A DNA stretch of 64,000 bases from Chiloscyllium plagiosum (lineage: Eukaryota). This document shows positions 5,553 through 8,218 of the stretch, piece by piece (within the stretch, counting starts at the first letter, position 1; each line of letters starts with the position of its first letter). A model generated the notes under the pieces. That model was not told where the DNA came from. It saw nothing but the letters and a program-made list of their open reading frames with translations, and made no database searches. A program made the position numbers and the translations under genes. The stretch lies in NCBI RefSeq assembly GCF_004010195.1, contig NC_057719.1, positions 8,116,190 through 8,180,189 on the forward strand, read 5' to 3'.

Positions 5553-6002
5553 GATATCCTTTACTGTTCCTAGTGAAGTGTTATTCTTTAATTACTTAAA
5601 AAAAAGTGAAAATTGCTCGAAATGTTTGCAGCAATTTCTGTTTTTGTTTCTGATTTCCAGCATCCTTAGTTCTTTTGATTGTTTTCTTTAATTTCTTACT
5701 AAAGTGGCTCTTATTTGCTGACCTGCAGACTACTTTGCAGATCTATATCTTAACCATCTTCAGTACTGACAGCTTGAAAAACCTCTCCACAAACTCTCAA
5801 AGCTTGGACACTTAACAAATTAAAATCCTTCTGCTGAAGACAAACTGTTTCCTGAACTGAAACTAAAATAACTGGACAGAGGCTGGTATCCTGTCACCCA
5901 TTCATCCAGTCACCTTTATTTACACATGGAGGGTCCTAGACACTGATGCAGCTCCCTCAGAGCCAGCTCTTGGAGTGAACAGGATATCTGACACTCCTGT
6001 TT

Positions 6003-6400
6003 ATTTTTTTTTATTTTTTTTATTTTTTTTATTTTTTTTTTCTTTTTTAATTTTTTTTTCTTTTTTTTAAAATTTAACCCCCACACTACCACCTAAGTGC
6101 GGTAGTGCTTATTTTATCCCCAGCACCCATGGTGTGTGTGTATGCAGGTGTGAGACACAGTGGAAGACACTAAGTGCACGAATCTTTATTCAATTTCCAC
6201 CACCAGGAAGATAGGAAAACACCCGGGTGGCCAGTGACAAACACTGCCCTTCACATCAAAGGACAGTGCTGTGTGATCAAAACAGTGAAGGGGAGGGTAG
6301 GGACTAAATCAAAATAGAGTTGGAGGGAGAAATGATGCACTCCACTCCCTGCGGCGCCCACCTCTCCCTAAACAACTCCAGGGTGTTGGTGAACACCGCG
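6003..6400 (-). mobile_element. Tx1-clade (L1 group) non-LTR retrotransposon 3' end, copy 1: ORF2 C-terminus, 3'UTR and poly(A)
   Basis: Minus strand about 6400-6305 reads AVFTNTLELFRERWAPQGVECIISPSNSILI*, resembling Tx1-type ORF2 C-termini. Poly(A) tail appears as a T-run at 6003-6068. Confidence 0.8.
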
Positions 6401-6415
6401 AATTTCTTGATTATA

Positions 6416-6602
6416 TATTTTTTTCTCTTTTAAATTTTAACCCCCACACTACCGCCTAAGTGCGGTAGTGCTTATTTTATCCCCAGCACCCATGTGTGTG
6501 TGTGTGTGCAGGTGTGAGACACAGTGAAAGACACAAAGTGCACAAATCTTTATTCAAATTCCACCACCAGGAAGATAGGAAAACACCCGGGTGGCCAGTG
6601 AC
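6416..6602 (-). mobile_element. Tx1-clade 3'UTR plus poly(A), copy 2
   Basis: Near-identical to 6070-6240 (aacccccacactacc...cgggtggccagtgac), with its own T-run. Confidence 0.8.
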
Positions 6603-6616
6603 GGACACTCCTGTTT

Positions 6617-6815
6617 ATTTTTATTTTTTTTTTTGTTTTTTTTTTATTTTAACCCCCACACTACCACCTAAGTGCGGTAGTGCTTATTTTATCCCCAGCA
6701 CCCATGGTGTGTGTGCGCAGGTGTGAGACACAGTGGAAGACACAAAGTGCACGAATCTTTATTCAAATTCCACCACCAGGAAGATAGGAAAACACCCGGG
6801 TGGCCAGTGACAAAC
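6617..6815 (-). mobile_element. Tx1-clade 3'UTR plus poly(A), copy 3
   Basis: Third near-identical copy, bounded by acactcctgtttat at 6605-6618 and 6814-6827. Confidence 0.8.
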
Positions 6816-8055
6816 ACTCCTGTTTATATCTGTCTGCCAGGGCTACCTGATTGAACCAGATTAATTGCTCCAATCAGGGAACTCATACTATATGATGTTC
6901 ACCTAGCTGACTTCATTACAATTACTACAGAAATCTAATTCTGAGCTGAACTCAAAAAAACTAGTGGGTCCTGGTTTAGTTCCGCTGTGTGTCATAAAAG
7001 TTCAATTTTGTAAATTTCATCAGTCAACAGCATAGGTATCCTGCTCAGCATTTAACTTAAATCACATGCCTTCTTAGAATTAAGGTCTTCAATTTACAGT
7101 TCCAAATGATTTGCTGACCGCTTTAAAAAAAGCTTGCATAAAATTGAAATCATACATTTATTTTACCTCTACTTTAAGATTCTAACTCCCAAATTGTGAT
7201 AATATGTTTTACACTTTAAGCACAATATGAATCAAGTCAACTTTTTTATATTGCTTCCAGTGAGTTTACATCCTCTCTTAATTAAGATGACTGAAACTGC
7301 ACACAGTTCTCGAGATATGGGCTACCCAATGCTATACATAACTTTTACACAATATTCTTATCTTTATGTTCTGTCTTTATGACCTGGACGGCCAGGTAAC
7401 TTGTTAATAGGAGAAAGCAGAAGTTACATTTTTTTTACTTTCCAGTATTCCTTGTTTTGGTTAAGCCATACTAAGGGACTTCATAATTTTACATCCTAGT
7501 TCTGCTGAAAGGTTTCTTCTTAGGCAGCACCTCAGTACTTCCAGTTTCATGGGTTTTGAGGTAGCTGATAAGTCTCTGCAAAATCTGCAGACTATAACAT
7601 GAGGGATGGGTTGTATTTTCAGGGTTAGATAGGTGTGTTGTTTGGAAGTTTGATTGCTTCCAGTGATGCTTCAACTTCGCTTCTGCACTTTCCTGATGAA
7701 GGATCTCAAACTGTTCAGTACCTTCCTGAATGTGCCTTTTCCTTGCAGTTGGTCACGAGCCAGGATCTCTCGATGCAGGTTTTTGATTTCTTTAATTTCT
7801 GGACATTTTGAAAAGTTTCCACTTTCATCCTAGGAGTTTGCTGTCATGATTGAGTTCTGAGTGAGAAGGGTCTAAGTAGAATCACACAGCATGAAAAGAT
7901 GTCACTCAGCTTCATGTGTTACCAGATAACCTGAGGTATTTCACCATCGCCTTGAATTCTCCTCTGAAAGTGGCAATTGAATCTGTTTCTACCACCTTTT
8001 ACATATAGTGCTTTCTAGATCATTTTAACTTGCTGTACACCTGGAGCATTAATTT

Positions 8056-8218
8056 CCTGAATGTGGTGCTGGAAAAGCACAGGAGGTCAGGCAGCATCCA
8101 AGGAGCAGGATTTGACGTTTCGGGTAAAAGCCCTTCATTCTCCTGCTCCTCGGATGCTGCCTGATCTGCTGTGCTTTTCCAGCACTGCACTCTCGACTCT
8201 AATCTCCAGCACCCGAAA
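8056..8218. mobile_element. Short PLE-derived fold-back element with TSD
   Basis: Arms gtgctggaaaagcacagga...ggcagcatccaaggagcagga and tcctgctcctcggatgctgcc...gtgcttttccagcac are reverse complements. TSD cattaattt at 8047-8055 and 8219-8227. Confidence 0.75.

Follow-up and report, generated by a model that had tools for sequence, protein, structure and literature searches.

Insertions of a Tx1-clade LINE at the TATA position of an LTR family in Chiloscyllium plagiosum, and their possible anchoring to an upstream CCAAT box

Results

A split LTR with three LINE 3' ends

The window, which is the whole 64-kb stretch of DNA analysed, contains a solo LTR split by three A-tailed 3' ends of one element, all in the same orientation (Table 1). 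The 3' ends lie between the copies of a 14-base motif which occurs exactly three times in the window, on a single strand (5991-6004, 6605-6618 and 6814-6827), as the first-pass annotation had described; the match extends to 15 bases in two of the copies (5990-6004 and 6604-6618). A chance origin of this triplet is excluded, because the same arrangement recurs genome-wide. The longest copy had been read as the end of ORF2, and its reading frame does end in LELFRERWAPQGVECIISPSNSILI, followed by the stop codon TAG at 6304-6306. The description of the LTR as a solo LTR with a 5-bp target-site duplication stands for the split LTR itself, but the duplication is imperfect (GAAAC and GAAAT, four of five bases identical) and the ends on the minus strand are TG...TA, not TG...CA.

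The motif copy at 6814-6827 shares five bases with the element (microhomology). It is at five bases common to target and element that copies 2 and 3 begin, at most two bases apart. Four sites distinguish these two copies; at each of them both letters are frequent throughout the family, and some are CpG sites. The tails of the three copies are unlike one another. A palindrome-like stretch near the 3' end of the element (6084-6107, 6447-6470 and 6659-6682) is a candidate recognition hairpin in the RNA for an element protein. Unrelated to the array is an inverted repeat at 8048-8203 with 63-nt arms (83%).

Table 1. Features of the split LTR and of the LINE array within it, in positions of the window.
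Feature	Position	Strand	Remark
LTR target-site duplication, left copy	5859..5863	.	4/5 match to 6930-6934
Solo LTR, downstream part (R/U5-like), likely Gypsy-type	5864..6004	-	includes target copy 5990-6004; internal pieces adjoin other LTR copies
Target-site duplication, 3'-most copy	5990..6004	-	15 bp, TATA position
Copy 1	6005..6400	-	A-rich tail 6005 to about 6066, 3' UTR, ORF2 end (stop 6304-6306); likely carried along with copy 2 by transduction
Foreign target-like junction	6401..6416	-	recurs at six other loci; putative 3' transduction from one source array
Copy 2	6417..6603	-	5'-truncated 3' end, short tail
Target-site duplication, middle copy	6604..6618	-	15 bp
Copy 3	6619..6813	-	5'-truncated 3' end, own tail; putative second insertion, into the 5' duplication
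Target-site duplication, 5'-most copy	6814..6827	-	14 bp; final 5 bases shared with the element
Solo LTR, upstream part (U3-like)	6828..6929	-	
CCAAT-box position	6850..6854	-	27 bp before the duplication; reads TCAAT here
Second CCAAT box, reverse orientation	6870..6874	+	47 bp before the duplication; intact
LTR target-site duplication, right copy	6930..6934	.	

Number of insertions at the locus

Three retrotransposon ends stacked at one site had been described for this array, with the caveat that the junction between copies 2 and 1 (6401-6416) is without the target motif, so that at least two events were supported. The caveat was right, and a recurring foreign junction now explains it. The junction has seven exact matches in the genome, namely the window and six other loci. 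At each of these six an A-rich run directly precedes it, and element sequence of varying length and then a new tail follow; at L406 this holds for a near-match which lies slightly upstream of the exact match. It is best read as the target of one source array, brought in by a read-through RNA; the source array itself is absent from the seven exact genome matches. Since the junction recurs at six other loci, copy 2 and copy 1 likely arrived as one RNA, and the window would likely hold two insertions rather than three: copy 2 plus copy 1 first, then copy 3.

A local tandem duplication or an assembly artefact would account for the start of copies 2 and 3 at almost one base, and no contig spans the whole array, the contigs of organisms A and B covering both flanks with LTR halves. 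The family-variable differences between copies 2 and 3, the differing tails, the recurrence of the inner junction and the age polarity seen across arrays make such an origin hardly credible.

Lineage and proteins of the LINE family

In the 3.56-Gb genome a 28-base motif of the 3' end is matched exactly 1,962 times, its reversed control not once. Near-full copies encode ORF1, an APE endonuclease and a reverse transcriptase (RT); Pfam detects PF03372 and PF00078 in L061, and the ORF2 of L411, a 6.9-kb solo insertion within an LTR, aligns in pieces with residues 1 to 1292 of Tx1L ORF2. The RT region is 60% identical to that of Xenopus Tx1L ORF2 over 97%. In a tree of 21 RT rows (midpoint root, Repbase families left out, composition of the query flagged as unlike) it falls into a clade with 100/100 support together with Tx1L and pieces from sturgeon, turtle and stingray, and is sister to the stingray fragment, a placement which by itself would point to a cartilaginous fish host. 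By this phylogeny, which had been suggested as a check of the initial Tx1-clade placement, and by the order of APE and then RT in ORF2, the family is of the Tx1L lineage of the Tx1 clade.

The hairpin loop of the Tx1L endonuclease has been tied to target recognition (PMC1950540); in 5/5 readable copies of the present family this hairpin is three residues shorter than that of Tx1L and is without the RDG tip. Target-site duplications at single-copy sites are 10-19 bp long, 31/37 of them 13-17 bp, and an A-rich tail is present. A Pfam search of three pieces from the ORF1 region found no DNA-binding family, a weak negative given that the reading frames are broken.

Preference for one LTR family

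Insertion sites were read in a positional sample, made of the first 100 matches of the 28-base motif (contigs C1-C2), and in a held-out sample of 60 and then 12 further places; separate discovery sets were ranked by similarity. Of the 128 arrays of the positional and held-out samples whose 5' flank could be read, 66 lie in the LTR family of the window, nearly all at the TATA position, a count which includes a few antisense LTR sites and is a lower bound, as some of the other arrays start with the tail of a second family. The 62/128 placed outside this LTR come from a script classification and are an upper bound; 26 arrays are without a readable 5' flank. Outside arrays, 483 kb of sequence contained the LTR only twice. 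An RT-bearing internal piece adjoins the LTR copy L127, and the target LTR family is likely Gypsy-type, a label given, domain order aside, on RT and protease motifs which we take to be of that type. Where one sequence type makes up more than 20% of its flanks, a Tx1 family is considered target-specific (PMC4494074), and the 66/128 found here lie above that proportion.

The 55 non-LTR sites with a duplication (L028, which is the tail of the second family, was dropped) have a cut consensus of only T/AAAA, where the slash marks the cut, and the duplication finder biases this motif by demanding an A-rich run. A conserved target word at most sites, of the Tx1L or R1Bm type, was not found, as only T/AAAA is shared outside the LTR.

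Several further insertions were recorded in the course of this survey. L124, L143 and L229 carry insertions of opposite orientation at other positions of the LTR. A second family, likewise A-tailed and unlike the first in its 3' end, occurs at the same LTR target and within arrays (L197, L362, L406, L012, L151 and L201); it has 25 motif matches in the fetched loci, some of them overlapping, and is possibly a partner SINE or a second LINE. The LINE also strikes a further repeat family that has both CCAAT and TATA boxes, apparently at two different boxes (L168, L021, L006, L252 and L120). L185 and L272 show, at the LTR target, a retro-copied downstream piece of the LTR with a poly(A) and an insertion made of a tail only.

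The CCAAT box of the target LTR

An exact CCAAT 27 bp upstream of the target is present in 61/73 occupied LTRs and in 28/58 empty ones (p 2.6e-5), the empty controls being drawn by one subfamily pattern, and CCAAT is the most over-kept five-mer in occupied LTRs among the 60 scanned. ATAAA is kept in 32/73 occupied and 26/58 empty LTRs. The reverse CCAAT box is without effect (45/73 and 37/58), and LTR identity elsewhere is 0.82 in occupied and 0.85 in empty copies. After L003, L143 and L216 are dropped the box is intact in 60/70 occupied LTRs; it is intact in 22/23 of the held-out sample, in 39/44 of the main subfamily and in 7/8 further LTR-like sites judged by eye. In 38/60 cases the LTR duplication begins exactly 27 bp past the box.

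When LTRs were chosen by pattern, 9/30 were occupied with box and TATA intact, 6/30 with the box intact and TATA changed, and 1/30 with the box mutated, which gives 15/60 for an intact versus 1/30 for a mutated box (p 0.017), the box-mutated pattern having left the TATA start unfixed. Among LTRs chosen by a motif upstream of both boxes 5/70 were occupied, 3/30 with and 2/40 without the box (p 0.64), and both of the box-less occupied LTRs hold old copies. Without the box occupancy is reduced, not abolished: 12/73 occupied LTRs are without it. Long arrays also occur where no box is present (L249 with 12 repeats, L099 and L215). The box raises insertion about fivefold in odds, yet is not required. 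The TCAAT change in the window probably came before the insertions, given the age of the LTR. In the main LTR subfamily a T precedes the box, which is off the NF-Y optimum, and no LTR with a large change in the spacing from box to cut was found.

The first-pass annotation had proposed that a Tx1 family targets the promoter of an LTR family and that it does so by specificity for the 14-base motif. The first part is upheld by the preferred position, the single orientation and the re-insertion into the regenerated target. The second part is not supported in that form, since up to about half of the sites (62/128) lie outside the LTR and share only T/AAAA, and since the word is no better kept in occupied LTRs; what tracks occupancy is CCAAT 27 bp upstream. 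The check suggested with that proposal, a table of the 30 bp that follow each poly(A), is confounded by the tails themselves, into which target motifs of other loci have been transduced.

A classical Tx1 specificity, in which the endonuclease would read a 13-15-base word at the TATA box and all other sites would be off-target noise, agrees with the at least 66/128 positional sites in one LTR family, with the sequence specificity of the Tx1L endonuclease in vitro (PMC1950540) and with the LTR of the window, which keeps the word while its box is changed. We consider it unlikely: TATA or target are often altered in occupied LTRs and the altered targets are still cut at 27 bp, the word is not better kept there, the consensus outside the LTR stops at T/AAAA, and the endonuclease hairpin is shortened.

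CCAAT at sites outside the LTR

An exact CCAAT lies 24-28 bp before the duplication in 13/55 non-LTR sites, in seven of them at 27 bp, while the remaining 89 offsets together hold 18 boxes (p 2e-10); with one repeat family collapsed it is found in 10/52 (p 2e-7). All seven boxes at exactly 27 bp are on one strand, and several of these sites have no TATA. The remaining 42/55 sites are without a box, and boxes with one mismatch are not enriched (9 versus 8.6). The proportion differs between samples, being 9/19 in the similarity-ranked discovery sets and 4/39 in the positional set (p 0.011), or 3/38 in the latter after collapse of the repeat family (p 0.051); age and length fail to explain this gap. 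In the held-out sample 2/21 sites have a box (p 0.08), one of which was scored at 24 in one analysis and at 27 in another, the preset window being 25-29. As a post hoc observation, a reverse ATTGG is found 39-41 bp upstream in 4/55 non-LTR sites (L245, L254, L067 and L137).

These sites bear on a reading by access only, according to which NF-Y opens LTR promoters and the cut is set by a preference of the endonuclease for the AT-rich TATA step together with pairing of the RNA head, so that no ruler would exist. Such a reading accounts for the effect on LTR occupancy, and it suits both the binding of NF-Y to LTRs in closed chromatin (PMC3730095) and the homology of the element head to the LTR; with 7/55 unrelated sites at exactly 27 bp, on one strand and in part without TATA, and with a reverse box that has no effect, it is improbable.

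Among the 13 non-LTR boxes eight fit RRCCAATSR, the extended NF-Y motif (PMC11802806), as do 7% of background boxes. A protein of the element, from ORF1 or ORF2, might instead recognise the CCAAT box, at 27 bp from the nick, without the help of a host factor, and this predicts the same spacing and strand. The fit of the box flanks to the extended NF-Y motif, and to a lesser degree the Pfam result on the ORF1-region pieces given above, make direct reading doubtful.

Growth, tails and heads of the arrays

The expectation that target-primed reverse transcription (TPRT) regenerates the target and so allows arrays is supported by re-insertion into the regenerated duplication and by an age polarity of the arrays: of the two outermost copies, the one at the 5' end is the younger in 35/46 arrays (p 1.3e-4). 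Tails were identical in 0/46 pairs. An inner copy shares the 5' junction of the first copy in 48/66 arrays (89/220 inner duplications), a count which is affected at LTR sites, where foreign targets can mimic local ones. Neighbouring copies show a modest excess of identity at the 5' end (about 2.8% versus 4.4% mismatch), and in L060 the first 42 bases of the new copy match the old resident while the remainder is young. We infer that the reused 5' junctions may arise from cDNA that paired with the target end or with a resident copy. A module pattern gave a broad spread of 1-68 bases after the AATAAA-like signal; it also caught internal element sequence, so that nothing is concluded from it.

Among 15 copies with the head motif 12 start like the LTR's own downstream region and three with a piece of the element's own 3' UTR. 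The heads of L411 and L413 differ from the local LTR, and the head therefore travels with the RNA. It had been suggested that the insertions could disable the LTRs; to judge by the sequence of the heads, LTR-like heads look more like promoter use than LTR disabling. A transcription start at the initiator-like motif of the LTR is at odds with the head of L413, which starts upstream of that motif. No RNA data set was listed for the window. RNA reads from three runs were placed on L411: run X22 gave none, a pile-up of starts was absent, and run X21 gave poly(T)-ended reads of one strand at the 3' end, which genomic A-tracts could prime. The lineage of L060, L062, L350, L352, L364 and L423 has a piece of its own 3' UTR as head, which suggests masters born inside arrays. 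In L356 a piece which we take to be 5S rRNA-like is joined before a full-length head and recalls the snRNA heads of SINEU, and in L015 a copy, presumably tRNA-Val-like, lies between two tails, after a target-like word, inside an array.

Discussion

The spacing and strand of the box, inside and outside the LTR, lead us to favour CCAAT-anchored insertion, likely through NF-Y, to which we give a probability of roughly 0.6. More tentatively, and at somewhat less than even odds, the LINE may have given up endonuclease specificity for an NF-Y tether, landing 27 bp past CCAAT on the TATA box of the LTR, with an LTR-derived head which would use the captured promoter and with tails which would record past targets.

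In such a scheme NF-Y on CCAAT would tether the element particle, or make the DNA bordering its footprint accessible, and a loosely specific endonuclease would nick the nearest T/AAAA-like step, box-less steps elsewhere being used at a lower rate. The LTR family would be the commonest place with a box and a T/AAAA-like step 27 bp apart. New copies would enter the 5'-most duplication, the sole one to retain the box at 27 bp, and the new cDNA would pair with the target end or with the resident copy, so that a new body and tail would often come to stand behind the old 5' junction. Read-through RNAs from array elements would bring to new sites a tail, the target of their source and a portion of the following copy. 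Full-length copies, which begin with LTR-like sequence, would be transcribed by way of the captured promoter. Binding of NF-Y to DNA is asymmetric, NF-YB lying some 15 bp past the box on its downstream side, and LTRs are occupied by NF-Y even where the chromatin is closed (PMC3730095); the one-sided CCAAT spacing therefore fits.

The family shares with Xenopus laevis Tx1L (UniProt YTX2, P0021; PMC1950540, PMC4494074) the APE endonuclease, the RT and insertion into another transposon. It differs in that its target is an LTR promoter, its cut motif is loose, its hairpin is without the RDG tip, the CCAAT spacing is present, and up to about half of its sites lie outside the main target. Preference of Tx1 families for LTRs is already in print: the crocodilian Tx1-8_Crp and Tx1-4_AMi prefer particular LTR retrotransposons (Kojima 2015, PMC4494074). 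For these two we saw neither a position within the LTR nor an upstream rule described, on both of which supplementary figure S4 of that paper may bear. The related SINEU-3 likewise forms tandems around a duplication (PMC4494074). Insertion of an APE-type non-LTR element at a fixed distance from the site of a host factor is known from Dictyostelium TRE5-A, whose ORF1 binds TFIIIB (PMC5911963); there the targets are Pol III genes, the factor is TFIIIB and the host is an amoeba, while here a Pol II box, a vertebrate and a putative protein contact are concerned. As Stage and Eickbush (2009, PMC2718515) describe, tandem arrays of Drosophila R1 also grow into the 5' duplication and have 5' junctions primed by microhomology. 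Unlike the present family, R1 has sequence specificity for 28S, and reuse of a resident truncation and chains of transduced targets are features of the present arrays which we have not seen described for R1 (PMC2718515).

In vertebrate LINEs the choice of target is as a rule attributed to the endonuclease (PMC4494074), and the account of NF-Y in PMC12065363 concerns binding to LTRs only. A CCAAT or NF-Y rule for LINE insertion was not found in the literature searched, which left most subscription journals and Repbase outside. Motifs after the poly(A) tails of such arrays overstate sequence specificity. If the LTR preference alone holds, the family is one more case of a known Tx1 habit. If the CCAAT anchor is true, a LINE placed at a fixed distance from the box of a Pol II factor would be a second targeting route in vertebrates, and it would explain shifts of the family between transposons which share a promoter layout.
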